From an uncultured Chloroflexia bacterium (lineage in GTDB: Bacteria > Chloroflexota > Dehalococcoidia > DSTF01 > WHTK01): a stretch of DNA of 64,000 nucleotides. The translations under genes and the position numbers were made by a program. The stretch covers positions 14,374 through 78,373 of the forward strand of contig CAVPFY010000007.1 of the NCBI GenBank assembly GCA_963703905.1. The letters are read 5' to 3'. How positions within the stretch are numbered: position 1 is the first letter of the stretch; every line of letters begins with the position of its first letter. Of the stretch, positions 3,487 through 60,586 are shown one piece after another. The notes below the pieces were generated by a model. That model made no database searches and was not told where the DNA came from. It saw only the letters and a list, made by a program, of their open reading frames with translations.

Positions 3487-5262
3487 ATGACGCGGCGCCG
3501 CCGCGAGGTGCTCAAAGGCGGCCTGGCGGCGGGGCTGGGCGCCGCCGCGATGTCCCTGATCGGCTGCGGCGGCGGCAAGGACGGCAACGAGGCTTCGACA
3601 GGGCCAAGGACTCCAGCGGCCTGATCACGCAGCCGGAGGACAGCACCTCCAGGGCCGTGCGCGGTGGCGTCTTCAAGGCTTATGCCGGCAGCGACGTCCC
3701 CAGCTGGGACCCGATCGGTGGCCGTCAGTCCGCCTCCGCCGGCATCCCCACGGACGCCTACATCCCCCTGGTGCGGCAGAAGGTCGGCTACCTCAAAGAG
3801 CAGTCGTCGGCCGAGACGGAGCCATACGCGGCCGAGTCCATCGAAGCGACCGAGGGAGGGCTGAAGTACATCGTCAAGCTGCGCGGCAACGGCGGCTTCG
3901 ACCCCGGCCGCCCACCAACGGCCGCATCCTCGACGCCGACGACGTCATCTTCAGCTGGAAGAAGTTCGAGGCGCTGTCGCGCAATCGGGCCAACCTGGCG
4001 CGCTCCGCCAACCCAAACGCGCCCCTGCAGAGCGTCACCGCCATCGACTCGAAGACGGTGTCGCTGAACCTCGCCGCGCCCGACGCCGACTTCCTGGTGC
4101 TGCTGCGGGGCCTCCTGATTGAGCCGAAGGAGGCAGACGGCAAGTACGACCCCAACGGCGAGATGCGCGGTTCGGGGCCCTGGATGGTCACCGAGTACAA
4201 GCCATCCGTATCGGCCACCTTTCAGCGCAACCCCAACCACTTCAACAAGGACAAGTATCACTTCGACTCCGCGGAGTACCCGATCATCCCCGAGTACTCG
4301 TCGGCCCTGGCTCAGTTCCGCACGGGCAACATCTACCAGTTCACCCCCAACAAGCTCGACCTCCTGCCGACCAAGAAGGACGTGCCGCAACTGGACATGT
4401 TCTACGACCCCCTCGTCACCACGCTCAACGGCCTGATGCCTCTCGGCTGGCTCGAAGGCTCGCCGGTGCGCGACGTGCGCGTCCGCCAGGCGCTGCGCAT
4501 GGCCATCGACGAAGAGGCCTTCGTCAGCACCTTCTTCGAGGTCGACAAGCTCAAGGCGCAGGGCCTGCCCGTCGAGTACTTCTTCAACAGCTCCTGGTCG
4601 ACCGCGGCCTATTCGGGCTGGTGGCTGGACCCCCAGGGCAAGGACTTCGGCCCGAACTCCAAGTACCTCAAGTACAACGCCGCCGAGGCCAGGAAGCTTC
4701 TCGCCGCCGCCGGTTATGCCAACGGCGTCGATATCCCGGCCCTGTACTTCACCTCGGCTGAGTACGGCACCGACTTCCCCAAGTACATCGAGGTGGTGCT
4801 GGGCATGTTCCGAGAGGCCGGCATCCAGCCGAAATCTCAGATCACCAACTATCAGAGCGAATGGATTCCGCAGGTGTTCAACGGCAAGGGCAAGTTCAAC
4901 GGCATGTCCTTCACGTTGCGCGGCGACTCCGCCGTGACCGGCCTGCCCAACCTGTCACAAAGACCGGCAGCCGCTTCTACGGTTTCGACGTCAACGGCCG
5001 CGACCCGGAGAACGGCGACCCGGCACTGGAGGACATGATCTTCAAGCAGCGCCAGGAGCTGGACATCCCCAGGCGCCAGGCCCAGGTCTTCGAGATCCAG
5101 CGTTATCTCGCGGAGAAGGCCTACTACCCGCAGTTCATCCCGGCCTGGTCAACCACCTTCACGCTCAACTGGCCGATCCTCCGCAACCAGCGCGTCTGGT
5201 TCGGCGCCGACCGCTTCGAAAGCCAGTGGCTCGATCAGACAAGGCCGCCGGCCAAGAGCTAA
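3487..5262 (+). pseudogene. Family-5 (DppA/OppA-type) ABC substrate-binding lipoprotein, frame-disrupted
   Basis: ATG 3487 gives the Tat/lipobox leader MTRRRREVLKGGLAAGLGAAAMSLIGCGGG. Homology to the intact paralogues at 14249, 17505 and 41915 continues through ORF-track pieces 3657..4067, 4058..5038 and 4861..5262 in three different frames. Shifts lie near 3585, 3900 and 4955. Confidence 0.8.
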
Positions 5263-5420
5263 GAAGCTCACGGCCGGAAATGCTCCTACCGGGGCCAGGC
5301 TTCCTCCGGAGGCTCGCCCCGGTTCCCTTTTGGGGGAGGTGTGAGATGCGAGGTGTGAGGCGTCAGGCATCGGCGCCCATCGACCGCCGCACGCCGCCTG
5401 CTTCAGACGCCAACTTCTCG

Positions 5421-5467
5421 CCGATCATCCTGAGCTTGTCGAAGGACGGAGATCGTCGAAGGACGGA
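5421..5467. repeat. Copy of the dispersed CGTCCTGAGG..CTCGAAGGACG-type palindromic repeat
   Basis: The core ATCCTGAGCTTGTCGAAGGACGG plus the partial repeat TCGTCGAAGGACGG is related to the units at 30198-30290 and 58472-58506. Confidence 0.5.
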
Positions 5468-5504
5468 CACGACCGCTACACACGCCACGAATTTAGCGAA
5501 GATT

Positions 5505-5558
5505 TAGGCCGGGCCTTCCAGGCCGGCCCGCTTGCTACGCGCGTTCGCGAAGCGGGCC
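5505..5558. terminator. Hairpins between convergent genes (REP unit plus stem-loop after the TetR stop)
   Basis: TAGGCCGGGCCTTCCAGGCCGGCCCG (5505-5530) belongs to the family also seen at 9832 and 23004. GGCCCGCTT (5525-5533) pairs with AAGCGGGCC (5550-5558) directly after the TetR stop at 5559. There is no U-tract. Confidence 0.4.
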
Positions 5559-6200
5559 TCAGGCGAGCAACTCCGCCAGCGCTTCACCCGCTGCCGATGG
5601 CTCCGTCAGGAAGCCGGCAAGCACGATCGCCGCGGCCCTGCGACGGTTGCCCGGGCCCTGATCGTCCGGCGATAGGGCCACGTCGATGCCAAGCCCACTG
5701 GTCAGGGAGAAAAGCGCCAGGGCGGCGTCCTGCGGCGCCAGGTCCGGCCTGAACGTCCCGTCTTCGACGCAGGCGGCGATGCAGCGGGCCAGCTCCGAGA
5801 CCTGGTGGGCCGCCCTCGCCTTGTAGTGGGTGGCCAGCTCCGGCTCCCTGGCGGCGTAAGACCAGTACTCGAGCCAAAAGGTCCAGGGCAGAGCGCCGGC
5901 ATTCTCGACGCGCAGGCTCTCGTCGACGAAGGCCAGGAGCCACTCCAGCCCCGGCTCCGGGCCGGCCCGGTCCAGCACTCGGTTCCGCAGCGCGCGTTCC
6001 GCCGAAAGCGATGCGTCCTTGAGGAGCGCCATCTTGTTCTGGTAGTAGTGGGTGAGCATGCCGGTTGTGGCGCCCGCCCGCTTCGCCACCTTGCGCAGGG
6101 TCACGCCGGCGATGCCTTCTTCCGAGACACAGGCGGCGACAGCGCCGATAATCTGCTCGCGCCGGTCCAGTGGTTTCTTCGTCACCCTCTCTACCATCAA
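5559..6200 (-). CDS. TetR/AcrR-family transcriptional regulator
   Basis: Intact ORF with an N-terminal HTH region, GIAGVTLRKVAKRAGATTGMLTHYYQNK. Its start (TTG 6200 or ATG 6197) overlaps the stop of the upstream gene. Confidence 0.8.
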   Translation of the reverse strand: MMVERVTKKPLDRREQIIGAVAACVSEEGIAGVTLRKVAKRAGATTGMLTHYYQNKMALLKDASLSAERALRNRVLDRAGPEPGLEWLLAFVDESLRVENAGALPWTFWLEYWSYAAREPELATHYKARAAHQVSELARCIAACVEDGTFRPDLAPQDAALALFSLTSGLGIDVALSPDDQGPGNRRRAAAIVLAGFLTEPSAAGEALAELLA

Positions 6201-7078
6201 GCACTCCCATCCATGACGACGCCTGAGCGAACCAGCCGCGCGATCTCGGCGCGCGTGTATCCCGCTTCCTTCAAAATCTGGCGCGAATGCTGGCCCGGCA
6301 GGGGAATGTAGCGGGCCTCGTCAGACTTTGTCCACGATGCGTAGTAGGCCGCGCCGACATGCTCAACGGTGCCAAACTGGGGGTCGGACGTGGTCCTGAT
6401 CAGGCCCGATGCGCGCACTTCCTCGTCGTCGAAGAGCTCCCACAGGCGGCGCACTCTCTCGGCCGCGATCCCAGCCTGGCGAAACTCGGCAATCAATGAT
6501 TCACACGTCTTCGTCGCGAACTCTTTTTCGATATTATGCCGCACCTGCTTATTCGCGGCGCTGCCTACCTCCCGAAACATCGGCCGGGGATTCCCCGAGA
6601 TGCGCGCCGGCCAGTTCTCGGTTGGGCAGTGGACGTAGGTCCAGCCGTCCGCGCAGCGGAACAAGCGCGACGTCAGCCAGCTCTCCAGCGGGTCGTAGCT
6701 CATCGGCTTGCGCTCCGGGAAGTCGAACAGGAGCATCGACTGCACCAGGCCCACGCCGGCCACGAGCGACGTTTCGACCTTGCGGCCGCGGCCGCTGGAA
6801 TCGCGCTCTCGCAGGGCCGCGAGGACGCCGAGGGCGGCGCAATAGGCGGTCGAGTAGTCGCTCAGGGCCAGCGGCATGAAACTCGGCCGGCCTTCAGGGC
6901 GGCCGAACTCTGCCTCCAGGCCGGTTGTCGCCTGCGCCGAGGGCTCCCAGCCGTGACGCGTCGCGAACGGGCCGCTGTGTCCGAAGCAGTTGATGTGCGC
7001 GTAAACGATCCCGGGGCGGCGGCGCGAAATTGCCTCGTAGCCAAATCCCAGCTTCTCGGCCGTCCCCAGCGCCACCAC
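6197..7078 (-). pseudogene. Family III CoA-transferase lacking the N-terminal ~90 aa (gene remnant or truncated paralogue)
   Basis: The 293-aa ORF begins at the ...KLGFGYEAI... segment and keeps the mid-domain (LALSDYSTAYCAALGVLAAL). The usual N-terminal LxGxRVLD..AGP..LADLGAxV(I/V)K(V/I)E CoA-binding part is absent. Only about 125 nt separate it from the divergent gene, so the missing part cannot be encoded upstream. Confidence 0.55.
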
Positions 7079-7205
7079 CCCGTCAGAATTCTGACGATGC
7101 TATTTGCCCCCCGGCTTTCTCGTCCAGTCGGCGCCTGCTGTTAGACACGCTCGCCGGGCTGGGCTATTCTCACACGGCCCCGCGTTACAACAGAAAGAGG
7201 AAAAG

Positions 7206-9871: not shown

Positions 9872-9910
9872 ACGAACCGCTCTATCGTCCGCGACGCCCT
9901 CTGGCTAACC

Positions 9911-9927
9911 GCTGACAGCTGACAGCT
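9911..9927. repeat. Short-period spacer GCTGACA x2
   Basis: GCTGACAGCTGACAGCT lies immediately 3' of the IclR stop (9931-9933). It uses the same word family as the CAGCTGT/CAGCTAT heptamers at 3134-3159. Confidence 0.6.
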
Positions 9928-9930
9928 CCC

Positions 9931-10687
9931 CTACGCCAACTGCACCGCCAGCTCCTCCGCCAGCACGCTCATCTCCTGGCGCATCCAGCCCTGGTGCTCC
10001 ACCGTCATCTTCTCCGGGCGGCCGCCGCAGGTGATCGCGGCGATGGCGTCGCCGCCGGCGTTGAACACGGGCACGGCGACCGAGCGCCAGAACTCGCTGT
10101 ACTCGCCGATGTCGGTCGAGTACTGATTGTGGCGAATTCGGTCCAGCTCCTCGCGCAGCTGGTCGCGGTCCACGATCGTGAGGTCGGTGTAGGAGCGCAG
10201 CGGGATGCGCGCCAGCAGGTCGGCGCGCTCGGCCTCCGGCAAGAAGGCGAAGAGGAGCTTGCCCGAGGACGTGCAGTGGATCGGCTGCAGCGTGCCCAGC
10301 TTGAACTCGCCGCGCTCGGAGTCGGGCGCCGCTCTCGCGGGCGACGAAAGTCACGGCGTCGCCTAGAAGCACGCCGAGGTATGAGTCCAAACGCGACATC
10401 TCGGCCACGTGCGCCAGCACCGGCAGCGCCAGTTGCACCAGCGACGACCGTCCCAGGCCGGCGCCGCCGACCGCCAGAAGGGCGGGCCCCAGCTGGTAGA
10501 GGCGTCCCTGCTTGCGCTCGACCCAGCGCATCGTCGTCATCGTCGCGAGAAGGCGGTGTACGGAGCTCTGGGGGATGGCGAGCTTGGAGGCGATGTCGCC
10601 GGCCGTCAGGGGACGGCGCTCCTTGGCCAGCATTTCGACGATGCGGATGACGCGCGCGCCGGACCTTACCTCTGTTTCAGCCGCCAA
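9931..10687 (-). pseudogene. IclR-family transcriptional regulator with one frame disruption
   Basis: The N-terminal wHTH part (IRIVEMLAKERRPLTAGDIASKLAIPQSSVHRLLATM) is in the frame of ORF 9905..10687. The C-terminal effector domain (...GTLQPIHCTSSGKLLFAFLPEAERADLLARIPL...) is in the frame of 9931..10242. There is a single shift near 10325. Confidence 0.75.
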
Positions 10688-10809: not shown

Positions 10810-11664
10810 TCAAATTCCCGGCGCGCCTCTGGCCTTGTCCTCAGCAAGGTGCCGCATCGCCCGCTGGACACGGCTGCGAAAGGGGCTGCCCGCCTCCCGC
10901 GGCTGCGGCTTGCGTTCCGACTCCGGCCGCACCTCCGGGTACGCCCATTGCCGCCCCCAGAGGCTGGGCGAGAGCGACCATACCGAGGTCGTGAAGCCCT
11001 GCATGTCCTGCGCCTGGTTGATTGTGTGCTTTATCGTCCGCAGGCTCACTGGGTCGTTTTCCGCGACGCGGGCCGCGAAAATCATCGTCTCGTCTTCGAG
11101 GCTCTCGGCGGGGAAGACCCGGTTGACGAAGCCGAAGGTCATGGCCTCCTGGGCCGACATGATGCGGTTGCCGAAGAGCAGCTCCTTGGCCTTGCGCGGC
11201 CCGACGTCCCAGGACGTGGTCATGTAGTCGCCGTACGTCGGCACGAACAGCGCGTCCTCGGCCGCGTAGATGATGTCCATCGCGGCCGCGATCATCCAGC
11301 CGCCGAAGAAGCAGTAGCCGTGGACCATCGCCAGCGTCGGCTTCGGCAGGTTGCGCCAGCGCATGTGCATGTCCACGTAAAGCTGCTTGTAGCGCTCGCC
11401 CAGGCCCCAGCGGTCGGCGTCAGCCTGCTCGCGCTCGGTGCGCTCCAGCACCGACTCCGGCGAGTCTATGTCGTGGCCGGAGGAGAAGCCGCGGCCGGCG
11501 CCAGACAGCACGACTATGCGCACTTCCGGGTCGGCGGCCGCCTCCTCGAAGGCCCTGTCCATTTCGTAGAGCAGCTTGTGGCTCTGGGCGTTCAGGCGTT
11601 CGGGCCGGTTGAGGATCACCCTCGCGACAGGACCCGGCTGGTAGATCAAGGTTTCGTAGGTCAT
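10810..11664 (-). CDS. Enoyl-CoA hydratase/isomerase (crotonase) family protein
   Basis: Intact 284-aa ORF. VARVILNRPERLNA and VVLSGAGRGFSSGHD are typical crotonase-fold motifs. Confidence 0.8.
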   Translation of the reverse strand: MTYETLIYQPGPVARVILNRPERLNAQSHKLLYEMDRAFEEAAADPEVRIVVLSGAGRGFSSGHDIDSPESVLERTEREQADADRWGLGERYKQLYVDMHMRWRNLPKPTLAMVHGYCFFGGWMIAAAMDIIYAAEDALFVPTYGDYMTTSWDVGPRKAKELLFGNRIMSAQEAMTFGFVNRVFPAESLEDETMIFAARVAENDPVSLRTIKHTINQAQDMQGFTTSVWSLSPSLWGRQWAYPEVRPESERKPQPREAGSPFRSRVQRAMRHLAEDKARGAPGI

Positions 11665-11686
11665 TCAGGTTCTCCCGTAGTAATCG

Positions 11687-12922
11687 TCAGTCCAGGGCCC
11701 CGGCGGCGGCCAGCTCCGCGATCTCGTCCGCGCTCAACCCCAGGATCGAGTCCAGCACCTGCATCGTGTGCTCGCCCAGCAGGGGCCCCAGGCGCACGTC
11801 CGCCGGGTTGTGCCGGCGCGATTGCATCGGGTTGCCGTGGACCAGGAACTCCCGCCCCACAGGATGCATCAGCCTCGCGAAGTAGTTTTCGCCCAGCGTT
11901 GGGTCGCGCTCGACCATGTCCGCGATGTCCTGGTACGGGCCTGCCGGCACGCCCCGCGCTTGCAGAAACACGGCCAGCTCCTGCCGCTCCCAGCCCTCGG
12001 TCCAGGCCTCGATCGCCGCGTCAATTTCCGCCTCGTGCGCCCGCCGGCCCGCGAGGGTCGCGAACTCGGGCCGTCGCAGCGCCTCCAGCGCCTCGACGGC
12101 GGTGAGCGCGCGCCAGTGCGCCTCCGTCCAGGACGCTGATCGCGCACCAGGAGTCCTCGCCCCGACAGCGGTAGATGTTGTGCGGCACGGCCTCGGGGTT
12201 GCGGTTGCCTTCCGGCGCTGGCGCCTGTTTGTTCGCGGTGTACTCGAAGCACGGCCGGCGCCCAGCAGCGACGCCGTCGACTCGTACTGGCTGACCTCGA
12301 TGAACTGCCCCTCGCCCGTCTTCTCGCGATGGTGGAGGGCCGCCATCAGGGCGATGGCGGCGTGAAACGGGTTCGCGGAGAAGTCCGGGTACTGGTGGCC
12401 GAAGTTCACCGGCGGCTCGCCGGCGTTCCCGGAGACGGACTTCAGGCCGGCCAGCGCCGCGAAGCTGTCGCCGAAGGCCCGCCAGCGCTTCCTCGGGCCG
12501 CGCGTCTCCATGGTCGGCACCGTAATGACGATGATGCGCGGGTTGAGCTTGCGCGCCTCCTCGTAGCCGACGCCCCAGCGGTCGAGCTGGTCGCCGTGGA
12601 GGTTGCAGACGATGGCGTCGGAGACGCCGACCAGGCGGCGCAAGCATGTCACGGCCCTGCGGCAGGGTCAGGTTGAGGGTGCATGGAGAGCTTGCCGGAG
12701 TTCATGTCCTGGAAGTAGCCGCCCGTGTCGGCGTTGGCGTTGGCGTCGCCCGGCAGCTCGCCGAACAGAGGAGTGCGGTTGCGCGCGCGCCACGTCCGGC
12801 CGGGTCGACGACTCGATCTTGATCACCTCGGCGCCCAAATCCGCGAGCAGGCGCGAGGTCAGCGGTCCGGCGATGATCCAGCCGCAGTCGATGATGCGGA
12901 TGCCCTCGAGCGGCAGGCTCAC
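11687..12922 (-). pseudogene. Family III CoA-transferase (unit type 2), frame-disrupted
   Basis: GTG 12922 starts MSLPLEGIRIIDCGWIIAGPLTSRLLADLGAEVIKIES. Homology to residues ~415-815 of the 19494..21941 protein continues through at least four frame changes (near 12790, 12665, 12255 and 12125). The C-terminus is ...LGEHTMQVLDSILGLSADEIAELAAAGALD. Confidence 0.75.
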
Positions 12923-14134
12923 AGGACGCCGCTCGGCTTCAGCGCCGCGACCGCTTCGGCATCGAGGCCGATGCGGCCGAAGACCTCGGCGTTATGCTCG
13001 CCCAGGAGCGGCGGCCGGCGCCCGAGGCGAAACGGCGTCTTGTCGAAGCGCATAGGCACGCCGGCGTCAAGCCACGACAGGCGCCAGTCCCGGCTGCTCG
13101 ACTTCGGCAAAGAAAGCGCGGCCGCGCAGGAACGGGTCCGCGACAAGGTCGGCGACATCGTTCACGGGCACGCACATCACGTCCTCGGCCTGGATGGCCT
13201 CGGCGACTTGCCAGCGCGTCCGCGCGCCGACGAAGCTTCGGATGACCTCGCCGCACGCGCGGGTCGCGCGCCGAATTCGCCTTCCGGCAAGCGAAGCGGC
13301 GATCTCGGCCAGGCCCTCACCCTCGCCGGCGCGCTCGAAGACCTTCTGCAGCGGCGCCAGGTTGCGAAAGGCGCCCATCTGCACGAAACCGTCGCTGGCC
13401 TCGTACAGGGTGGTGGCCTCGGCCCCTCGCAGGTGACGGGCGCGCTTGAAGCCAAATTGGTGGTACAGGGACGCATTCGACATCTGGAATGTCACCAAAG
13501 CGCCAACCCGTTCGGCCGCGATGTCGATGACGTCGCCCCTGCCGTTGCGGCGGGCGTCGTAGAGCGCGATCAGCGCGCCCAGGGCAGCCGCCAGGCCGCT
13601 CATCTCGGACGCCTGCTGCGGCCCGAAGCGCGCCGGGCGCTCGCCACGATAGCCGAAGTAGCCGATCATGCCGCTCATCGCCTGGCAGATCAGGTCGTCG
13701 CCCAGCCAGGCCGACCGCGCCGAGCTCAGTCCGAACGGCGTCACCGAGACCACCACCAGCGGCGGCGACTTCGCGGCCAGGGCGTCGAGGTCGAAGCCCA
13801 TTCCGGCCAGCGTGCCGTTGTCGAACACGATCTCGACATCGTCCAGGAGGCGGCGCATGAGGTCCCGGCCCGGCGACGTACCGGTGTCGAGCGTTATCCC
13901 CTTTTTGCCGGCGTTGTAGTGCAGGAAGTACAGGCTGGGCGCGGTCTCGGCCGGGCCCTCGACCATCTCATACAGCGGGAGGCGCCGTCGCTGCGTCGAG
14001 CCTCCGGGCGGCTCGACGCGAATGACCTCCACACCGAGGCCGACCAGCAGCCTGGGGCCATACGCGCCCAGCCCGTCGATCAGGTCGAGGGCACGCGTAC
14101 CGGCCATAGGTCCGCTGGGATCAGTCAAGTTCAA
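12919..14134 (-). pseudogene. Family III CoA-transferase (unit type 1), one frame disruption near the 3' end
   Basis: ORF 13067..14134 (MAGTRALDLIDGLGAYGPRLLVGLGVEVIRVEPPGG...) continues in ORF 12919..13158 (...PMRFDKTPFRLGRRPPLLGEHNAEVFGRIGL...). The shift is near 13085. Its stop overlaps the GTG of the next gene (GTGA). Confidence 0.75.
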
Positions 14135-14159
14135 CCGTTCGTTCCTTCATCGCAGCGTA

Positions 14160-14186
14160 GGGGCGTCCCACAGTGTAGGACGCCCC
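14160..14186 (-). terminator. Intercistronic hairpin after the SBP gene
   Basis: GGGGCGTCC (14160-14168) pairs perfectly (9 bp) with GGACGCCCC (14178-14186). It lies about 60 nt after the SBP stop and before the CoA-transferase gene. With no U-tract it may be an attenuator or mRNA stabiliser rather than a full terminator. Confidence 0.35.
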
Positions 14187-14248
14187 CTTGAATCGCGGCT
14201 GGCGCTCAGAGCACCGGATCCAAACTGTGTTTCCCTCCTCGTGGCCGG

Positions 14249-16129
14249 TCAGGCCTTCTTGTTAACGGGCGGCCTGCTCTCATCGATCCAGAGGTTGAGG
14301 TCGCCCTCGGCGATCGCCGCGCCGCCGATGGTCGTGCGGTAAACGCCGCCGTTCTGGATTGTGGGCCAATGAAGGATGAAGTTGACTGCGCCTACCGGAG
14401 GCATCGGGATGCGAAGGGCCTTCTTCGCCATCATCCGTTGGTATTCCTGGATCTGGTCGATCTGCTTCTGGTGGTCGAATTCGGCCCTGAACTGCTCGAT
14501 CGCTTTGTCGACTTCCGGGTCGCCCTTCCTGGCGTCGCCGCCGTTGTAGGAGTAGCCGTCTGTCTGCGTCCCCTTCGAGTGCTGGAGGTGGAAGATCGTC
14601 AGGTCGACGGTCGGCCGCGAGCCGGCAGCCTTGAGCAGGATGCCGTTGTATCCCGGCATCGGCTCGTTGCGGTGCTGGGCCGGCGTATAGGCGTAGTGGT
14701 AGTTCGGCAGATACTCGGTCGAGTAGTCCTTGGGGGTCTGCTTGGCGCGAATGCCGATTTCCGGCAGCATGCCGGCGAGCAAATCCGCCGAGCGGCTGTA
14801 GGTGGTGCCGTACTGAGTGCCGCCGTTGTAGAAGAGGCTGGTGTCGAAGCCGTTGGCGAAGCCCGCGGCCGACAGGAGCTTCTTTGCCTCGGCGATGCTG
14901 TACTCGTAGAAGACGCCGTTGGGGCCGAACTTCTTCGAGTCCCTGGCGTCGATCCAGTAGCCTTCCCAGGTCGCGCTGATGATGTTGTGATAGCGCGTCT
15001 GCAGGTCCAGGCCGTCGAGCTTGAACTTGTCGCGGTTGTTCATGACGTCGGTCAGCAGCTCGCGGTCGATGGCGCGAGAGACCGCCTGGCGTACGCGCTC
15101 GTCCTTGAACGGCGAGTCCCCATCGTAGCCAAAGAGGATGACCGACGAGATCGCCGAGAAAGCGTCGTCCAGGCGTAAGGTCGCGTCCGGCACGTCCTTC
15201 TTCGTCTGGACAATGTCCTCCTGGCGCGCGACGCTGGTCCAGATATTGCCGGCCTTGAACTGGGCCAGCTGGGCGGAGTATTCGGGCACGATCGGCACTT
15301 CGATCGAGTCGATGTAAGGGCGGCCTTTGTTGTAGTACTCCGGGTTCTTCTTCCAGGTGCGCCCGGCGGAAGGCGTGCTCTGCGACAGGAGCCAGGGGCC
15401 GGCGCCGCGGATGTCCTTGCGCGCGTCGAAGCCACCCTCGGCTTCCTTGGGCATGATGTAGAAGTTACGGTTGTAGGCCAGTAGCGGCAGGATGGACGCA
15501 TCCGGCTGCTTCAGCTTGAACACAACGGTCTTGTTGTCTGGCGTGCTCACCGACTCCACGGGACCGAAGGGCGAGACGGTGGCGTCGTAGAGGACGTCCG
15601 CCCTGTTCGGGCTGAGCTTGGCGAAGCGGGCCCAGGTTGTCGCCACGTCTTCTGCGTCCATCAGGCGTCCGCTGGTGGGCGCCCGCGCGTCCCATTTGAT
15701 CCCCTGGCGAAGCTTGAAGGTCACCTGAAGCTTGTCGGCGCTCACCTCGTAGGATTCGGCGCCGTCGCCTTCGGTCTCGCCGGACGGGGCCTTCGGATAC
15801 TTGCCCGTCGCGAACTTGATCAGCCGCGGGTAAGCGTAGGCCGAAATTTGGCCGTACACCGTGGACGTCGCATCTCCGATAGGGTCGAATGAGGTCGCGT
15901 CGGCGCTGGCGAAGGTCTTGTATGTGCCGCCGGATTTCGCCTTGGAGGTGGTGTCCACGGGCGTGCTGACCAGGCCCGAAACATTCGCCTTCGGCTCGTC
16001 CGAACCGCCGCCGCCACAGCCGACGAGGCTGAGCGCGGCGACTCCTCCACCAATTGTTGCTGCGCCTGTAAGGGCGCGCCTGCGTGAAATCCGTGCTCTC
16101 GTTGCTTGCTCCCAGTAGCCAGGTTTCAC
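14249..16129 (-). CDS. Family-5 ABC substrate-binding lipoprotein (Tat signal)
   Basis: ORF track 14249..16174. GTG 16129 is preceded by a perfect AGGAGG 5 nt upstream. The leader is (M)KPGYWEQATRARISRRRALTG...LSLVGCGGGG. It is a paralogue of 17505..19391. Confidence 0.85.
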   Translation of the reverse strand: MKPGYWEQATRARISRRRALTGAATIGGGVAALSLVGCGGGGSDEPKANVSGLVSTPVDTTSKAKSGGTYKTFASADATSFDPIGDATSTVYGQISAYAYPRLIKFATGKYPKAPSGETEGDGAESYEVSADKLQVTFKLRQGIKWDARAPTSGRLMDAEDVATTWARFAKLSPNRADVLYDATVSPFGPVESVSTPDNKTVVFKLKQPDASILPLLAYNRNFYIMPKEAEGGFDARKDIRGAGPWLLSQSTPSAGRTWKKNPEYYNKGRPYIDSIEVPIVPEYSAQLAQFKAGNIWTSVARQEDIVQTKKDVPDATLRLDDAFSAISSVILFGYDGDSPFKDERVRQAVSRAIDRELLTDVMNNRDKFKLDGLDLQTRYHNIISATWEGYWIDARDSKKFGPNGVFYEYSIAEAKKLLSAAGFANGFDTSLFYNGGTQYGTTYSRSADLLAGMLPEIGIRAKQTPKDYSTEYLPNYHYAYTPAQHRNEPMPGYNGILLKAAGSRPTVDLTIFHLQHSKGTQTDGYSYNGGDARKGDPEVDKAIEQFRAEFDHQKQIDQIQEYQRMMAKKALRIPMPPVGAVNFILHWPTIQNGGVYRTTIGGAAIAEGDLNLWIDESRPPVNKKA

Positions 16130-16280
16130 CTGTGCCTCCTTCCGAAACGAAAAGCCAACCGGTGGACGGATCATTGTTCCGGGAAGCTGGGGCTGTCAAG
16201 AGTGGTATTGACAAACTGGCGTACAATTCGGCCAGCACGAACCATATTTGGTGTTCGATTACCGCTTTCGGAGGCAGCAC

Positions 16281-17474
16281 ATGGACCTCAGCGACACCCC
16301 CGACGAAGCGGCCTTCCGCTCTGAGGTCCAACGCTTCCTGCGCGCGAACCTGCCCGCGGGCTACGGCTCCCCGGACCATTATGCCGGCGCGGAAGCCTCG
16401 GGCGGCTCGCAGGTTGAATTCATGCGCGGCTGGCGCCGGGCGCTCGTCGAAAAACGTTGGGCCGCCGCGCACTGGCCGAAAGAGCATGGCGGCGCCGGCC
16501 TCAGCACCGTGGAGCAGTTCATCCTGCATGAAGAGGCAGCGCTCGCCCGCGCCCCTCAGCTTGGGAACATGGGCATCGACATGATCGGGCCAACGCTAAT
16601 CGTCTTCGGCAGCGACGCCCAGAAAGACCGGTTCTTGAGCCCTACCGCCAACCTCGAGATCAACTGGTGCCAGGGTTATTCCGAGCCGGGCGCCGGCTCC
16701 GACCTGGCCTCGCTTCAGACTCGCGCGGTCCGTGACGGCGACGACTTCCTGATCAACGGCCAGAAAATCTGGACCTCCGGCGCGCACCGGGCTGACTGGA
16801 TGTTCATGCTGGCGCGTACCAACACCGAGGCGCCCAAGCATCGCGGCATCAGCATGTTCCTCCTCGACATGAAGTCGGCGGGCGTCAGTCACTCGCCCCT
16901 GCCCAATATGGCCGGGGACCACAGCTTCAACCAGGTGTTCTTCGACAACGTGCGCGTCCCCGCCTCCCAGATGGTGGGCGAAGAGAACCGCGGCTGGTAC
17001 GTCGGCGCGACTCTTCTCGACTTCGAGCGCACAGCCATCCACGCCTCGATCAGCCTGCGCAATAACGTCGATGACCTGCTGCAGTTCGCCCGCGAGCATC
17101 GCGGCGACGGCCGGGCGAGGCTGATCGACCAGCCCGCGATTCGCCATGAGCTGGCGGACCGCCTCCTGGACGCCGAGATCGCCAGGCTCTTCTCCTATCG
17201 CATCATCTCGATGCAGAAGAAGGGCTTCATTCCCAACCACGAATCGTCCGTGAACAAAGTCTTCCGCACGGAAAGCCAGCAACGTGTCGCGGCCACCGGC
17301 ATGAGGCTCATGGGCCTCTACGGGACGCTTTACCGCGGGTCCAAGTGGGCGCCTCTGCACGGGCGCCTGGCCCACTTCTACCTGGATTGCGTGTCGCGCA
17401 CCATCGGCGGCGGCACCAAGGAGATCAACCGCAACATCATCGCGCAGCGCGGCCTGGGATTGCCGCGAGACTAA
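16281..17474 (+). CDS. Acyl-CoA dehydrogenase family protein
   Basis: ORF track 16248..17474. ATG 16281 has the RBS GGAGG. The protein has typical ACAD length and segments (GYSEPGAGSDLASLQTRA, GQKIWTSGA, and the C-terminal IGGGTKEINRNIIAQRGLGLP). Confidence 0.8.
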   Translation: MDLSDTPDEAAFRSEVQRFLRANLPAGYGSPDHYAGAEASGGSQVEFMRGWRRALVEKRWAAAHWPKEHGGAGLSTVEQFILHEEAALARAPQLGNMGIDMIGPTLIVFGSDAQKDRFLSPTANLEINWCQGYSEPGAGSDLASLQTRAVRDGDDFLINGQKIWTSGAHRADWMFMLARTNTEAPKHRGISMFLLDMKSAGVSHSPLPNMAGDHSFNQVFFDNVRVPASQMVGEENRGWYVGATLLDFERTAIHASISLRNNVDDLLQFAREHRGDGRARLIDQPAIRHELADRLLDAEIARLFSYRIISMQKKGFIPNHESSVNKVFRTESQQRVAATGMRLMGLYGTLYRGSKWAPLHGRLAHFYLDCVSRTIGGGTKEINRNIIAQRGLGLPRD

Positions 17475-17504
17475 GGCCGCGTTCAGAGTCAGAGAAGGAG
17501 CCCG

Positions 17505-19391
17505 ATGAAGGACAATCGTTACTGGGAAAAGTTCACCAATCAGCGCCTGAACCGCCGCAAGGCGCTCGCGGCGGCGGGCGGCATCGGGGCCGGGGCCGTC
17601 GCGCTCAGCCTCGCCGGTTGCGGCGGCGGTGGCAGCGACGACACGAAGGGCAACTCCTCCGGCCTGGTTTCGAACCCCGAGGACACGACCAGCAAGGCGA
17701 AAGCCGGTGGCGTTTTCAAGGACTTCGTTGGCGCGGACGTGCCCTCGCTGGACCCGATCGGCTCGGCGAACGTGCGCTCCCAGACCGACATCGGTTCCTA
17801 CACCTACCCGCGGATCATGAAGTACGTGAACGCGAAGTACCCGAAATTCGCAACCGGCGACGTCGAGGGCGACGCCGTCGAGACGTTCGAGATCGCGCCC
17901 GACGGCCTCCAGGTCACCATGAAGGTCCGCCAGGGCATGAAGTGGGACTCGCGCGCGCCGACGAGCGGACGCGCCCTGGATGCCCAGGACATCCTCTTCA
18001 GCTATGACAAGTTCACCAAGCTCAACGGCTACCGCTCGGAGTTTCAGTACAACGCCGAGACGTCACCACTGGCCCCGATCGAGACGATAACGTCGCCGGA
18101 CCCGCGCACGATCATCCTCAAGCTGCACGCGCCCCGCGCTTCGCTCCTGCCGATCTTCGCTTACAACCGCTATTTCTACGTGATGCCCCGCGAGTCCGAA
18201 GGCGGCTTCGACCCCCGCGGCGACGTGCGCGGCTACGGCCCCTGGCAGCTCGTCAGCAGCCAGCCTTCGACGGGCCGCACCTGGAAGCGCAACCCGGACT
18301 ACTACGTTAAGGGCCGCCCCTATCCGGAGACCCTGGAGCACCCCATCGTCAGCGAGTACGCCGCCCAGCTGGCGCAGTTCCGCGCCGGCAACATCTGGGC
18401 GGGAGTCGTCCGGCCTGAAGATGTAATCCAGACTAAGAAGGACCTACCCGAACTGGTGCTGCGCCAGGCGGAGGCCTACAGCGCCATCCCCTCGGCTCTG
18501 ATCTTCGGCTACGAGGGCGATTCGCCTTTCAAGGACCCGCGGGTGCGCCAGGCCGTCTCGATGTCAATCGACCGCGAGACCCAGGCCGACGTGCAGGGCA
18601 ACCGCGACAAATTCCGCGCCGAAGGCCTGGAGGTGCCGGCTCGCTTCCACACGGTCATTAGCGCCAACTGGGACGGCTACTGGCTGGACCCTACCGACAC
18701 CAAGAAGTTCGGCGCCAACGCCAAGTACTACACGCTGGACATCGCCGAGGCCAAGAAGCTGCTCTCGGCCGCGGGCTTCGCCAACGGCTTCGAGACGCCG
18801 CTGTTCTATAACGGCGGCAACCAGTACGGCACCGTCTACACCCAGACGGTCGATATTGTCGCCGGCTTCCTCAAGGAAATTGGCATCCGCGTCAAGAACA
18901 ACCCGCTGGAGTACAGCACGGATTACCTGCCGAACTACCACAACGGCGGCTACGCCCAGGCCCAGAACATCGGCCGGCGCCCGCCCGGGTACAACGGCAT
19001 CCTCCACAAGTCCGCCTCCAACAGGCCGACGGTGGACCAGAGCCTCTTCGGCCACATGCACAAGGACGGCAGCCAATTCGAAGGCGCCCTGCCCGAAGGC
19101 GGCACCGACGCCCGCCTGGGCGACCCCGAAAACAACTCCATGATCGAGAAGATCATGGCCGAGTTCGACCATGACAAGCAGATCGCCCTGGTGCAGGAAT
19201 TCCAGAAAATGATGGCGAAGAAGGTCTACCGTATCCCGGACGGCTCCTACAGCGCCCTGGGCTTCAGCCTCTCCTGGCCCGTCATCGGCAACTACGGCCT
19301 CTACCGCACCTGGCAGGGCGGCGTCCCGCCCGTCGAAACGTCGCTGCACTGGTGGGTCAATGACACAATGGCCCCGCTGAAGAAGGCGTAG
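17505..19391 (+). CDS. Family-5 ABC substrate-binding lipoprotein (Tat signal)
   Basis: Intact 628-aa ORF with the RBS AAGGAG. The leader is MKDNRYWEKFTNQRLNRRKALAAAGG...LSLAGCGGGG. Confidence 0.85.
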   Translation: MKDNRYWEKFTNQRLNRRKALAAAGGIGAGAVALSLAGCGGGGSDDTKGNSSGLVSNPEDTTSKAKAGGVFKDFVGADVPSLDPIGSANVRSQTDIGSYTYPRIMKYVNAKYPKFATGDVEGDAVETFEIAPDGLQVTMKVRQGMKWDSRAPTSGRALDAQDILFSYDKFTKLNGYRSEFQYNAETSPLAPIETITSPDPRTIILKLHAPRASLLPIFAYNRYFYVMPRESEGGFDPRGDVRGYGPWQLVSSQPSTGRTWKRNPDYYVKGRPYPETLEHPIVSEYAAQLAQFRAGNIWAGVVRPEDVIQTKKDLPELVLRQAEAYSAIPSALIFGYEGDSPFKDPRVRQAVSMSIDRETQADVQGNRDKFRAEGLEVPARFHTVISANWDGYWLDPTDTKKFGANAKYYTLDIAEAKKLLSAAGFANGFETPLFYNGGNQYGTVYTQTVDIVAGFLKEIGIRVKNNPLEYSTDYLPNYHNGGYAQAQNIGRRPPGYNGILHKSASNRPTVDQSLFGHMHKDGSQFEGALPEGGTDARLGDPENNSMIEKIMAEFDHDKQIALVQEFQKMMAKKVYRIPDGSYSALGFSLSWPVIGNYGLYRTWQGGVPPVETSLHWWVNDTMAPLKKA

Positions 19392-19430
19392 GCCCGGACT
19401 GACGACAGAAGCAACGGCAGATATTACTTT

Positions 19431-19458
19431 GGGGGCGTCATTCGCCGGAAGGGCGCCC
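19431..19458 (+). terminator. Intercistronic hairpin after the SBP gene
   Basis: GGGGCGTC (19431-19438) pairs with GGCGCCCC (19451-19458), 8 bp including one G-U pair. It starts with the same GGGGCGTC word as the hairpin at 14160 and lies between the SBP and CoA-transferase genes. Confidence 0.3.
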
Positions 19459-19493
19459 CTTCCAAGGCTCCGGCACACTTCCGGATCTACCTC

Positions 19494-21941
19494 ATGAGCA
19501 CGGCCGGCGGACCGCTGGCGGGTTTTCGCGTCCTCGACTTCACCGACGAGCTCGGCGTTTACGCGACGAAGGTCCTTGCGGACCTCGGCGCCGACGTCGT
19601 CCGCCTCGAGCCGCCTCGGGGCGACCCAATGCGGTCGTACCCGCCCTTCGCGCCGGACGGCAAGACCAGCCTCTATTACGGTCACTTCAACCTCGGCAAA
19701 CGGGCTCTGGCGCTCGACTGGACGGCCGCCACCGGGCTCGACGCGCTGGCTGCCCTGGTCCGAAGCAGCAACGCCCTTATCGAGTCGGCGGCGCCGGACC
19801 GCCTGCTCAGCGCCGCCATCGGCATCGAGCGCCTGCGCGAGTGGCGGCCCGACCTGGCCCTGGTCTCGATCACGCCCTTCGGCCGGACCGGCCCCTACCG
19901 CGATTACAGAGGCGGCGACCTGGTGCTGTCGGCCCAGAGCGGGCTCGCCTTCCTCCGCGCCGACCCGGCCTCCCCGCCGATGCGGCCGGGCGGCGAGCAG
20001 ACCACACATATGGCATCACAGCTGGCCGTGAACGCCGCCCTGATGGGCATTTACGAGCAGCAGACCAGCGGCCGCGGCAGCTACGTCGAGGTTGCCGCCA
20101 ACTTCGCGACTTGCCTGGCGACGCTGCAGAGCGGCAACGCCAACTACTGCACCTGGTTCGGCGAAGCGCCAATCCGCCGCAGCAGCGTTTACCAGGTCTG
20201 GGAGGTCGCCGACGGCTGGACGACGTATACGAACTCGCCGCGGGGTTTCGCCAACCTCCTGGGCCTGCTGCAGGAGCACGGCGCCGAAGACGACCTCGCC
20301 GCGCCTGAATACGCTGACCTCGAGTACCGCCAGGCGCGCGCCGAGCACGTGAACGAGGTCGTCGCGCGCTTCTTCAAGACGCAGGGCAAGCAGCAGCTTT
20401 TCGAGAAGGCGCAACGGCGAGGCCTGCGCTACATGCCCGTGAACAGCGTCGCTGATATCGCCCGCGACCCCTTTCTCGTGAACCGCGGCTTCTTCCGCGA
20501 GGTCGACTGGCCGGCGCTCGGCGGCAGGGTCACCTTTCCCGGCGCGCCCTTCCGCTTCGGCGGCCGAGACCTCTGTCACACCACGCCGCCTCCAGGGCCC
20601 GGCGAGCACACGGCGGAGGTCCTCGAGTCACTTCGCGAGAAGCCGGCCGGTCCCATTTCGGCTGTAGGCGCCCCTCACGAGCGGCGCGCCGTGCCCACGG
20701 CAGGTCTCTCCAGCGAGCCGGCAAACGCACCCTGGCTGCCCCTCAAGGGCATCCGCGTCCTCGACTTCTCCTGGCTCATCGCCGGCCCCCTCGGCACGCG
20801 CCTGCTGGCGAACTTCGGCGCCGAAGTCCTGAAGGTCGAGTCTTACAACCGCGTCGATGGCATCCGCCTCACCGGCCCGCATCCGAAGACGGATGGCCCC
20901 GTCAACGTCAACGCCGACGGCTCCTTCAACGACGTGAACCTGGGCAAGAAGAGCCTCCTCCTGAACCTCAACGTCCCCGAGGCGCGCGAGATCGCGCTGC
21001 GCCTCTGCGCCGTCTCCGACATCGTCGCGGCGAACTTCACGGCCGACAGGCTGGACCGCTGGGGCCTGGGTTTCGACGACCTGCGCCGGGTCAAGAAGGA
21101 CCTCGTCTTCCTCTCCATGCCGGTGTTCGCGAAGGGCGAGCGCGTGGACTGGGGCGGCGTCGGCAGCGACATTTCCGCGCTCTCGGGCATCAACGCCATC
21201 TCGGGCGTCGAAGGCACGCCGCCGATCGGGCTCGGCCTGCACTACCCCGACTTCAGCTCCAACCCCTTCCACGCCCAGGCCGCGATCCTGGCGGCGCTGA
21301 TCAACCGCGAGCGCTTCGGCGAAGCGCAGCTGATCGAGGTCAGCCAGTACGAGTCGACCGTATCGATCCTGGGGCCGGCGTTGTTGAACTACTTCGTCAA
21401 CGGCACGGAGCCACCGCGCCTCGGCAACCGCTCTCAGCGCCATGGCCCCCACAACATCTATCGCTGCGGCGGCGCCGACAAATGGTGCGCGATCTCCGTC
21501 TCCATGGAGGACGAATGGCAAGCTCTATGCCGGGCGCTGAATCGGCCCCAGTGGATCTCGGACGCTCGCTTCGCGGACTTCGCCGCCCGTAAACGCAACG
21601 AGGACGCCCTGGACGCCCTCATCGGCGAGGCCGTTGCCGGCGAGGCGCCATCGGCCCTGGCCGCGCGCCTCCAGGGCGCCGGCGTCGCCGCCGCGCCGGT
21701 CAACAACGTCGCCAACCTGCTCGCCGACCCCTGGTACCGCGACGAATACTTCACGGTCATGGACGGCCCCGACGGCTACGAGTTCACCGCGCATGGCGAA
21801 CCGCTGCGGCCTTTCGGGCGCAAGCATCCCGTGCGCCGGGCGCCGTTCATGGGCGAGCACACCGAAGAGGTCCTGCGCGGCATCCTGGGCCTGGACGACG
21901 GGGAGATGGACGCGCTCTACGTTTGCGGCGCGCTGGGCTGA
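19494..21941 (+). CDS. Two-unit (tandem-fused) family III CoA-transferase
   Basis: Uninterrupted 815-aa ORF. Unit 1 starts LAGFRVLDFTDELGVYATKVLADLGADVVRLEPPRGD. Unit 2 starts LKGIRVLDFSWLIAGPLGTRLLANFGAEVLKVES and ends ...FMGEHTEEVLRGILGLDDGEMDALYVCGALG. Confidence 0.8.
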   Translation: MSTAGGPLAGFRVLDFTDELGVYATKVLADLGADVVRLEPPRGDPMRSYPPFAPDGKTSLYYGHFNLGKRALALDWTAATGLDALAALVRSSNALIESAAPDRLLSAAIGIERLREWRPDLALVSITPFGRTGPYRDYRGGDLVLSAQSGLAFLRADPASPPMRPGGEQTTHMASQLAVNAALMGIYEQQTSGRGSYVEVAANFATCLATLQSGNANYCTWFGEAPIRRSSVYQVWEVADGWTTYTNSPRGFANLLGLLQEHGAEDDLAAPEYADLEYRQARAEHVNEVVARFFKTQGKQQLFEKAQRRGLRYMPVNSVADIARDPFLVNRGFFREVDWPALGGRVTFPGAPFRFGGRDLCHTTPPPGPGEHTAEVLESLREKPAGPISAVGAPHERRAVPTAGLSSEPANAPWLPLKGIRVLDFSWLIAGPLGTRLLANFGAEVLKVESYNRVDGIRLTGPHPKTDGPVNVNADGSFNDVNLGKKSLLLNLNVPEAREIALRLCAVSDIVAANFTADRLDRWGLGFDDLRRVKKDLVFLSMPVFAKGERVDWGGVGSDISALSGINAISGVEGTPPIGLGLHYPDFSSNPFHAQAAILAALINRERFGEAQLIEVSQYESTVSILGPALLNYFVNGTEPPRLGNRSQRHGPHNIYRCGGADKWCAISVSMEDEWQALCRALNRPQWISDARFADFAARKRNEDALDALIGEAVAGEAPSALAARLQGAGVAAAPVNNVANLLADPWYRDEYFTVMDGPDGYEFTAHGEPLRPFGRKHPVRRAPFMGEHTEEVLRGILGLDDGEMDALYVCGALG

Positions 21942-40701: not shown

Positions 40702-41850
40702 TCAGGCCTGATGGGCCAACTGCTTCACGAGCGCGCTGAAGCCCCTGGCCTGGCGCGCCACCGACGCGACATCGACCGCGTGCGGCCAGCGGTCGCTCTG
40801 CATGTGGAAGTGCGCGTTTCCGCCCAGAAGGGAGACGCAATTGGCGCCTCTGGAGGCCACAACGCCCGACTCCTGGCCCAGCACCTGCCCGACCGGCGCC
40901 GCCGTCACGCCCTCCACGCCGGCCGCCTCCAGGCCTGCCCGGGCGGCGGCCAGGAGGTCCGCGTCTGTCGCGCTGATGCGCACGGCCTGCTGGGTGGCGC
41001 CGCCCACGTTGGCGCCGAAGTGCACCCAGGCCCTGGCGCCCCGCACGAGGTCGCCGTGGCGCTCCAGGAAGGCATCGCAACCGAGGTGGCCGAGCTCATG
41101 GCCGCTGAAGGCGATGAACCACACGGGCCGGTCGTGTTCCGTCGCCGCGACCTCTCGCATGACCTCCAGCCAGGCGGCGATGCCGCCGCCGCGCTCGCTG
41201 GCGCACTGCCACCAGCCGCTGCGCGGCGTCGTCACCACCACCGGCGCAAGCGAGGCATCGCGCCCCGCCAGGCGAGCGAAGATGTTGGAAGATGAGGCTT
41301 TGGTTCGCGTAGCCGTGGCTACGACCTGGGCCTTCGAGCCCAGGGCCGTCTGCTCCACCAGCCAGTCCTTCACCTCGCCCGAGACCTGAACCACCGGCGG
41401 GCCGAACGGCTCGTAGAAGGAGGATGCGTTGCTGGCCACCAGGCCGGGCTCACGGCCTTCCGTAACGCAGACAATCGCCGAATGCTTGCCCTTGCGGCGC
41501 AACTCTTCCAGCTGATGCATGGCAGGCCCGGCACTGATCACGACGACACCGATGTCCGCTTCCGAGCCGGAGGCGCCGAGGCGGCCGCTGACGCCCGCGC
41601 TCTCGGTCAGGCCGCAGTCAAAGAGCGGCAGCCCATCGACGCGGCGGCCGGCGACTTCGACGTAGGCCTGCTCCGGGTTCAGGCGGCTGATCTCGTAGGC
41701 ATCGGTCTCAGGCGCCGGCCCGAGGTCGCGCACCTTTTCCGAAAGCCAGGCGGCGCATGCCGCGTCCGCCGGCGTGCCGGTCCGGTGCCAGCCCTGCGTG
41801 TCGAACGCGGCGATGATGGCGCCGATTCGGTCCTCCTGGTTAACAGACAC
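40702..41850 (-). CDS. M28-like peptidase / PA-domain protein (uncertain)
   Basis: Intact 382-aa ORF. The segment VWFIAFSGHELGHLGCDAF resembles the FxGxExGLxG metal-site region of M28 aminopeptidases. The assignment is weak. Confidence 0.35.
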   Translation of the reverse strand: MSVNQEDRIGAIIAAFDTQGWHRTGTPADAACAAWLSEKVRDLGPAPETDAYEISRLNPEQAYVEVAGRRVDGLPLFDCGLTESAGVSGRLGASGSEADIGVVVISAGPAMHQLEELRRKGKHSAIVCVTEGREPGLVASNASSFYEPFGPPVVQVSGEVKDWLVEQTALGSKAQVVATATRTKASSSNIFARLAGRDASLAPVVVTTPRSGWWQCASERGGGIAAWLEVMREVAATEHDRPVWFIAFSGHELGHLGCDAFLERHGDLVRGARAWVHFGANVGGATQQAVRISATDADLLAAARAGLEAAGVEGVTAAPVGQVLGQESGVVASRGANCVSLLGGNAHFHMQSDRWPHAVDVASVARQARGFSALVKQLAHQA

Positions 41851-56124: not shown

Positions 56125-56221
56125 GAACGGTGAACTCCCTTCTCAGAGGGCGTTTTATCAGAAGATGGGCAAAGGCGAAAGGGCGCCCGCGGACTTAAAC
56201 GTCGCGCGGGCGCCCTTATGA

Positions 56222-57904: not shown

Positions 57905-57989
57905 AAGATGAACCTCCGGAAACTTAACGCTTGCTGATGGATCGCCTTAGCTTGCTCTCAAGTCGGATACCTCAATCCTTCGCGCGCAC

Positions 57990-58075
57990 CCTGCGCGTGC
58001 CAGCCGCGAAGCCGCGGGTCCAGGTGATGGTCCCGGGCTCCCGGGAGGGCGAATCCTTGCGCAACAATGCCGGTC
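57990..58075 (-). pseudogene. Relic of a DppC-type permease 3' end
   Basis: The minus-strand frame reads ...QGFALPGARDHHLDPRLRG..., compared with the intact paralogues GFNLLGD(A/S)LRDVLDPRLRG. About 12 of 19 positions match by eye. Nothing upstream of this piece is recognisable. Confidence 0.45.
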
Positions 58076-58203
58076 CGCGGGGCGAGGCGGCCTTCCCCAA
58101 ACGGGACTTTCCAGAGGCCGAGGCAGACTCCATCGTCGCCATGAACAATCGTCCCATCTAATTACTCCTACGACTGCGCTTGATAGGAGGATTCTGGGTT
58201 GGG

Positions 58204-58231
58204 ATTATCCAAGTAATAACTATTTAGTCAA
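58204..58231 (-). promoter_or_regulatory. Candidate sigma-70-type promoter for the 57904 SBP operon
   Basis: On the minus strand: TTGACT (58231-58226), a 16-nt spacer, then GATAAT (58209-58204), inside the only AT-rich patch of this intergenic region. Confidence 0.4.
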
Positions 58232-58620: not shown

Positions 58621-58669
58621 GCCAGCTCACACGCGAACCGGGACGGGGCCCGCAATCCTTGCGTGGCCC

Positions 58670-59605: not shown

Positions 59606-59619
59606 TCCGGCGTAGGTTG

Positions 59620-60567: not shown

Positions 60568-60586
60568 GGCCCCCCTTTGGGCGGAA

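Follow-up and report, generated by a model that had tools for sequence, protein, structure and literature searches.

A 64-kb stretch of the genome assembly of a soil Dehalococcoidia bacterium (G000:C7:14374-78373; the window) carries several pairings of a family-5 substrate-binding protein (SBP) gene with genes for a two-unit family III coenzyme A (CoA) transferase; positions below are in window numbering unless prefixed with G000 or with a locus handle beginning with L. The assembly comprises 3.93 Mb in 8 contigs, with 66% G+C. Module A lies on the minus strand and runs from SBP A (14249..16129; SBP_bac_5 E 5.9e-51) through CoA-transferase unit 1 (12919..14107; CoA_transf_3 profile positions 3-337) and unit 2 (11687..12922; CoA_transf_3) to an enoyl-CoA hydratase (10810..11664; ECH_1 E 3.7e-34), with an IclR-type regulator downstream on the same strand (9905..10687; HTH_IclR E 2.8e-13) that has weak NCBIfam matches to PcaR/BhcR-type models. 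Module B occupies the plus strand and consists of an acyl-CoA dehydrogenase with three Acyl-CoA_dh domains (16281..17474), SBP B (17505..19391; SBP_bac_5 E 2.3e-45), which is 56% identical to SBP A, and a fused two-unit family III CoA-transferase of 815 residues with two CoA_transf_3 domains (19494..21941). Module C, again on the minus strand, comprises a two-unit CoA-transferase detected as CoA_transf_3 pieces across three frame changes (43974..46262), SBP C (41915..43726; SBP_bac_5 E 5.5e-45) and, downstream of it, an M28-like protein with a marginal Peptidase_M28 match (40702..41850; E 1.3e-4). A 977-residue open reading frame at 37685-40618, just upstream of the M28-like gene and on the opposite strand, has a weak bacterial Ig (Big_7) match alone.

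A preliminary description of this DNA had proposed this gene content for modules A to C, and Pfam searches confirm each element at or near the position it had assigned. Its count of three modules in 64 kb was sound as far as it went but incomplete, for a fourth, broken instance lies at 3560-7099. There, a further subfamily SBP on the plus strand is interrupted by frame changes (3560..5038; SBP_bac_5 profile positions 78-339 at 4058-5038) and is 38% identical to SBP B (match at G000:C7:18266-19258); 1.4 kb from it, on the minus strand, is a family III CoA-transferase fragment (6197..7099; CoA_transf_3 profile positions 95-365, E 1.4e-45). As had also been noted, SBP A, B and C have no adjoining permease or ATPase gene. 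BPD_transp_1 is found no closer than 54149, the start of a gene in a canonical SBP-permease operon, and the sole permeases in the window (54149-56124 and 59620-60567) go with two canonical SBPs of 555 residues. These form two SBP-permease-permease operons (54149-62290), likewise without ATPase genes.

Gene spacing is operon-like in modules A and B. The gaps in module B are 30 and 102 nucleotides; module A has one of about 141 nucleotides, then an overlap of the two transferase units in which the TGA stop of unit 1 shares the sequence GTGA with the GTG start of unit 2, and finally 22 nucleotides between the unit 2 stop and the start of the hydratase. Because of the GTGA overlap, module A is predicted to encode a translationally coupled split pair. 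Terminator-like hairpins on the minus strand occur solely after the hydratase (10762-10748, before the IclR gene) and after the IclR gene (9852-9834), which is weak evidence, such sites being no commoner in a scan than in shuffled sequence. The divergent region of about 150 bp between SBP A and the acyl-CoA dehydrogenase (16130..16280) contains the palindrome TGTCAA-N9-TTGACA at 16194-16214, which presents a -35-like TTGACA hexamer on each strand, and one palindrome arm forms the -35 element of a promoter-like site on the minus strand. The palindrome may be an operator, perhaps for the IclR-type regulator at 9905-10687.

SBP A, B and C match SBP_bac_5 (PF00496) at 154-174 bits, against a gathering cut-off of 32.4. 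Each N-terminus, as read from the sequence, has a twin-arginine motif, a hydrophobic stretch, an L-x-G-C lipobox and a Gly/Ser linker ('SRRRALTGAA...SLVGCGGGGS' in SBP A, 'NRRKALAAAG...SLAGCGGGGS' in SBP B and, after Met76 of a long open reading frame, 'SRRSALKAAG...ALVGCGGGS' in SBP C), and the three proteins are predicted to be surface receptors that are exported by the twin-arginine (Tat) route and anchored by lipid. The two canonical SBPs of the window share the signal region 'SYW..R...RRRAL...GCGGG' with this subfamily. An AlphaFold2 model of SBP B (predicted local distance difference test score 89.7, predicted template modelling (TM) score 0.85) has the bilobed cluster-C SBP fold with its additional domain, and Foldseek matched it with probability 1.00 to DppA, AgaA, GbpA and MoaA (TM 0.66-0.83, normalised to target length). 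Searching the genome with SBP B gave 32 matches at about 26 loci, with proteins of roughly 600-640 residues and identities of 31-56%. We conclude that a family-5 (cluster C) SBP subfamily of roughly 620 residues is expanded to about 26 genes in this genome. A class-wide spread of the subfamily is unsupported, as 11 of 121 sampled Dehalococcoidia genomes, G000 included, contain a match at 1e-60. Tandem arrays of three or four orphan SBPs, with no permease or CoA-transferase within 8 kb, are found in other Dehalococcoidia metagenome-assembled genomes (MAGs; L059, L095, L086 and L041). A MAG labelled Gemmatimonadales also contains a subfamily SBP (L094; 46% identity), for which horizontal transfer or a binning error is possible.

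The SBP/CoA-transferase pairing recurs well beyond the window. A CoA_transf_3 match is found within 1.5 kb of 11 of the 26 subfamily SBP loci, whereas random placement, repeated 5000 times, put 2.1 loci there on average and 8 at most, so the genome-wide neighbourhood check proposed in the preliminary description shows the pairing to be non-random. Proximity at the same distance was seen for 7 of 28 enoyl-CoA hydratases, 1 of 15 acyl-CoA dehydrogenases, 1 of 11 luciferase-like oxygenases and none of 21 permeases. In a related short-read genome, G121, whose SBP B orthologue is 82% identical, 7 of 17 subfamily SBPs adjoin a CoA-transferase where about 9% would be expected (binomial 6e-4); the two genomes are not independent samples, because some of the G121 pairs are orthologues of A and B. 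The preliminary description had made its case depend on the pairing recurring in relatives, and this genome keeps the pairing of both A and B. We conclude that the SBP/CoA-transferase pairing is real and non-random. On the SBP tree described below, CoA-transferase adjacency changes 12 times for 15 rows; it was thus gained many times, which fits selection for adjacency and also fits shuffling within catabolic islands. The apparent preference of SBPs for two-unit CoA-transferases (7-8 of about 27 loci) over single-unit ones (3-4 of about 25) is too weak to claim. Between SBP/CoA-transferase modules in both this genome (G000:C6:131199-134672) and the relative at L031 (L031:2515-5949), there is a single-chain protein of about 1150 residues with biotin carboxylase, biotin carboxyl carrier and carboxyltransferase parts, a possible acyl-CoA carboxylase acting on branched acids.

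The CoA-TRANSFERASES of the modules are predicted to be BbsEF-like pseudo-heterodimers with a single catalytic unit. BbsEF, the succinyl-CoA:(R)-benzylsuccinate CoA-transferase (PDB 9fn0), is likewise built from two unlike family III units. The N-unit of the module B fusion has 9fn0_A as its best PDB match (5.9e-51, compared with 4e-21 for 9fn0_B) and the C-unit has 9fn0_B (2.8e-65, compared with 1.6e-19 for 9fn0_A), a distant similarity with phmmer bit scores of 177 and 224, respectively, over about 400 residues. Asp586 of the C-unit aligns with the Asp of SUGCT and 9fn0_B in a column that we take to hold the family III catalytic Asp; the N-unit has Thr171 there and 9fn0_A has Tyr. Among the 66 near-complete units in the genome, this column is Asp in 35 of 37 C-type and 9 of 29 N-type units, and many N-units share with 9fn0_A a Tyr in a Q-A-Y-x-M-A motif. 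Module A follows the same division, with Ser at the column in unit 1, which is chain A-like and probably non-catalytic, and a retained Asp ('QYPD') in unit 2, the chain B-like and putatively catalytic partner. The two units stay together in every module, as one chain in B, as the coupled split pair in A and, judging from its fused orthologue, as a fusion in C. All begin directly with the Rossmann-like fold and have no signal peptide. Across the genome, 97 CoA_transf_3 matches fall in about 52 loci, about 27 of which are two-unit.

Similarity to the benzylsuccinate pathway extends to the neighbouring genes, since the acyl-CoA dehydrogenase and enoyl-CoA hydratase found close by are comparable to BbsG and BbsH. 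The best NCBIfam model for the module B dehydrogenase is PimC, the large subunit of pimeloyl-CoA dehydrogenase (E 4.4e-83, below the cut-off), and the predicted PimC-like dehydrogenase and the hydratase resemble enzymes that begin the beta-oxidation of benzylsuccinate or dicarboxylates. The modules differ from BbsEF in that the units are joined in one chain in B and C, and in that this one genome has about 27 two-unit loci. Genes of BbsCD or BbsAB type were not seen, nor was a benzylsuccinate synthase, and Pfam found neither a short-chain dehydrogenase/reductase pair nor a thiolase in the modules. Because the BbsCD- and BbsAB-type genes are not present, the modules do not represent a bbs operon, and we describe the transferases as BbsEF-like rather than as BbsEF. 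The fusions also have the architecture of DddD, the dimethylsulfoniopropionate (DMSP) CoA-transferase/lyase, a single chain of about 800 residues with two tandem CaiB-like domains. That comparison concerns architecture alone; the source here is soil rather than marine, nothing indicates DMSP, and no DddD model matched among the NCBIfam models. An expansion of CaiB/BaiF paralogues, partly DddD-like, has been described in SAR202 Chloroflexota by Landry et al., who drew no connection between it and binding proteins (PMC5395668).

We examined how the orphan receptors relate to transporter components elsewhere in the genome. Just one subfamily SBP locus in G000 has a permease within 1.5 kb; at G000:C1:490210-496767, on the minus strand, the gene order is CoA-transferase, enoyl-CoA hydratase, SBP, permease, permease and 4HBT thioesterase. 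In a close relative (L037), the order is CoA-transferase, CoA-transferase, SBP, two permeases, SBP, four permeases and SBP, with no ATPase, and the second of these SBPs is a core-clade member that is 46% identical to SBP B. The orphan SBPs are thus paralogues of permease-linked SBPs. We built a FastTree phylogeny from 124 SBPs, in which the subfamily forms a group of 111 rows (support 95) that stands apart from the canonical permease-linked SBPs, and most of its own permease-linked members fall in a basal clade. SBP A and SBP B represent sister groups, and their orthologues (L035 and L034) also adjoin a CoA-transferase; the orthologue of SBP C (L055) has a permease 299 bp away. The genome has 37 BPD_transp_1 matches, amounting to about nine Dpp-type permease pairs, and ATPases of Dpp/Opp type (oligo_HPY) at three sites alone. 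One ATPase pair (G000:C1:705674-707802, equivalent to L127:5674-7802; ABC_tran plus oligo_HPY, twice) lies between BrkB-like and methyltransferase genes with no permease or SBP beside it. Because this pair stands alone, the parts of ATP-binding cassette (ABC) importers appear to be mostly unlinked in this organism. A two-unit CoA-transferase (C1:701073-703330) has the same pair about 2.3 kb downstream of it.

We propose, with a probability of roughly 55%, that the modules belong to a system resembling the Bug receptors but assembled from ABC parts, in which many surface lipoproteins would hand small organic acids over to a common set of Dpp-type permeases, for activation by the BbsEF-like CoA-transferase encoded next to the receptor. 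Each lipoprotein would bind small organic acids of a single class extracellularly and dock on a Dpp-type permease pair, of which the genome has few, at other loci; separately encoded ATPases would energise these permeases. The neighbouring CoA-transferase, with one catalytic unit and one unit without the catalytic aspartate, would then activate the imported acid without ATP, and the acyl-CoA dehydrogenase of module B and the enoyl-CoA hydratase of module A would take the CoA ester through a short route resembling beta-oxidation. Carboxylate ligands, a shared translocon and co-transcription of the modules are what we infer from the gene arrangement. Because the transferase is BbsEF-like and the dehydrogenase PimC-like, our best guess for the substrates of modules A and B would be substituted dicarboxylic acids.

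The preliminary description had likened the modules to the Bug (TctC) receptors, an apt analogy given about 26 orphan receptors, about nine Dpp-type permease pairs and a lone ATPase pair. Known systems of Bordetella and Cupriavidus, and AdpC of R. palustris, have receptors that outnumber the membrane components and are mostly unlinked from transporter genes, with receptor genes scattered beside catabolic enzymes that include CaiB-type CoA-transferases; the logic proposed for these tripartite tricarboxylate transporters (TTT) is that many receptors serve a few poorly specific translocators (PMC5812351). The excess of receptors, the unlinked genes and the catabolic neighbours are shared with the genome studied here, and we propose the same many-to-few logic. 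However, the resemblance is one of logic, not ancestry: SBP_bac_5, with the cluster-C fold, is the sole Pfam family found in our receptors, the coupling we propose is to an ABC importer with separate ATPases instead of a secondary TctAB carrier, and the receptors would be Tat-exported lipoproteins of Chloroflexota, not soluble periplasmic proteins of Proteobacteria. Sharing of components is also familiar from ABC importers, in which several OppA-type receptors can serve one translocator and, in Streptomyces, importers share the ATPase MsiK. By comparison, receptor, permease and ATPase here lie at separate loci and would, by analogy, be combined in trans; the scale also differs, with about 26 orphan receptors, as does their consistent placement beside CoA-transferases. 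Two Agrobacterium SBPs with non-peptide carboxylate ligands, AgaA (6hlx, agropinic acid) and MoaA (6tfq, mannopinic acid), share the fold of the SBPs described here, are among their best sequence and fold matches and show that the cluster-C fold is able to bind small carboxylate opines. The identity to these two is just 19-22%, they are encoded in complete ABC operons, and members of the subfamily described here exceed them by about 100 residues and are lipid-anchored.

Several observations weigh against this proposal, and some of them also favour a rival explanation in which the orphan SBPs are ordinary Dpp/Opp receptors for peptides or other non-acids and their adjacency to CoA-transferases reflects the packing of two abundant families in catabolic islands, with no common substrate. 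The top fold and sequence neighbours of the receptors include DppA, OppA, GbpA and AppA, and the solved cluster-C relatives, about 14-22% identical, bind peptides, opines, glutathione, nickel chelates and chitooligosaccharides. With relatives so distant and ligands so mixed, the ligand class is not assignable by homology; the best NCBIfam equivalog score for the SBPs was 60 bits against cut-offs of 393-1005, and we dropped this line as uninformative. Fifteen of the 26 paralogues in G000 are not near a CoA-transferase, their neighbours including genes for a 4-alpha-glucanotransferase, a tRNA synthetase, a ferredoxin, a glycosyltransferase, an aminotransferase, a family I CoA-transferase and a histidine kinase, and several orphan SBPs adjoin peptidase genes (S9, M48, PmbA/TldD and M28-like) or housekeeping genes. 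One orphan SBP, at G000:C5:140706-144900 (L121), has a fragment of a family I CoA-transferase (CoA_trans) on one side and a GAF-HisKA_3 histidine kinase on the other. In other genomes (75 loci with 93 subfamily SBPs), 8 of the SBPs are within 2 kb of a CoA-transferase and about 85, some 90%, are not; a permease is within 2 kb of 15, and about 70 are near neither gene; these often occur as tandem runs of three or four. Adjacency is commonest where CoA_transf_3 is densest, in G000 (97 matches) and G121 (63 matches), as opposed to 12-26 matches elsewhere.

The modules also did not diverge as pairs. Identity between SBPs is uncorrelated with identity between the adjacent catalytic CoA-transferase units (Mantel r 0.04, p 0.39), which contradicts the earlier idea of a repeated module in the sense of copies of one unit; co-duplication was dropped as an explanation, and the lack of correlation indicates that modules were assembled repeatedly and not copied as units. 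The lack of co-divergence also favours the packing explanation. On the other side, adjacency is five times the random level and exceeds that of hydratase, dehydrogenase and luciferase-like genes of the same genome, it is replicated in G121, one subfamily SBP lies inside the operon of CoA-transferase, hydratase, permease and thioesterase genes, and the opine-binding AgaA and MoaA demonstrate carboxylate ligands within cluster C. Receptors for peptides or other non-acids, placed by such packing, are the strongest competitor to the organic acid proposal, and we consider them unlikely.

The orphan lipoproteins could instead be surface sensors or regulatory or structural proteins with no role in transport, signalling to the IclR regulator or to a histidine kinase, and precedent exists in LpqW of mycobacteria, a family-5-like lipoprotein with a non-transport role. 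Membrane components are not adjacent to the orphans, an IclR gene follows module A, one orphan SBP adjoins the GAF-HisKA_3 kinase, and many Ralstonia tctC homologues are near regulators (Bug review, PMC5812351). However, members of the same clade occur in classical SBP-permease-permease operons both in G000 and in a relative, and the unlinked ATPases indicate that ABC parts are scattered in this genome generally. IclR proteins, moreover, are cytoplasmic and would not sense a surface lipoprotein directly. A sensory, regulatory or structural role is improbable, and well behind the peptide-receptor alternative.

Interruptions in modules A and C bear on whether these genes are functional at all. 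In-frame stops and frame changes interrupt the CoA-transferase genes of both. When all frames are read, the conserved protein of module A carries on across successive +1 frame changes and returns to the starting frame: unit 1 has one frame change near its 3' end, with its C-terminus in frame +1 ('...LLGEHNAEVF...GVL*'), and the coding path of unit 2 passes through frames 0>1>2>0 twice. For module C, the comparison was with a 779-residue orthologue, L031:6100-8439, uninterrupted in its short-read assembly; the alignment follows frames 2>3>1>2 with 64-78% identity. The corresponding DNA alignment, at 70% identity, is too noisy to place indels relative to homopolymers. Outside the window, rpoB and rpoC, both essential and present once, are each scattered across several open frames (G000:C1:1174457-1182526), and marker-based completeness is just 60% despite the near-contiguous 8-contig assembly. 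We conclude that the assembly bears many single-base indels. Since rpoB and rpoC are equally broken and completeness is so low, assembly errors, rather than gene decay, are the most likely source of the frameshifts in modules A and C. That A and C are decaying relics without present function, as the multiple frame changes and stops in their CoA-transferases and in the fourth SBP might suggest, is very improbable given equally broken rpoB and rpoC, a completeness of 60% for an 8-contig, 3.9-Mb assembly, frame changes that run in one direction and return to frame, and an intact module C orthologue, and we dropped this reading.

The three modules, or really four, belong to a lineage-specific arrangement in a soil Dehalococcoidia bacterium. 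In the literature searched, we found no description of a family-5 orphan-receptor expansion in Chloroflexota, which is no proof of absence. Large paralogue families, CaiB/BaiF CoA-transferases among them, are the presumed means by which Dehalococcoidia and SAR202-type Chloroflexota break down recalcitrant organic matter; transporters have been listed in general terms alone (PMC5395668). A receptor family paired with CoA-transferases would yield testable receptor-enzyme pairs, in which the ligand of one SBP would predict the substrate of a neighbouring, otherwise unassignable, CoA-transferase. If the organic acid proposal is true, the design of many receptors and few translocators would extend from the TTT carriers of Proteobacteria to the ABC importers of a monoderm-type phylum. 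A fuller ABC-type counterpart of Bug is possible, at rather less than even odds: dozens of receptors, each for a different soil organic acid, would share a few promiscuous Dpp-type permeases and one ATPase pair, with each receptor gene beside the CoA-transferase that activates the same acid. Were that so, the pairing of receptor and enzyme genes could serve to chart the substrates of an uncultured lineage.

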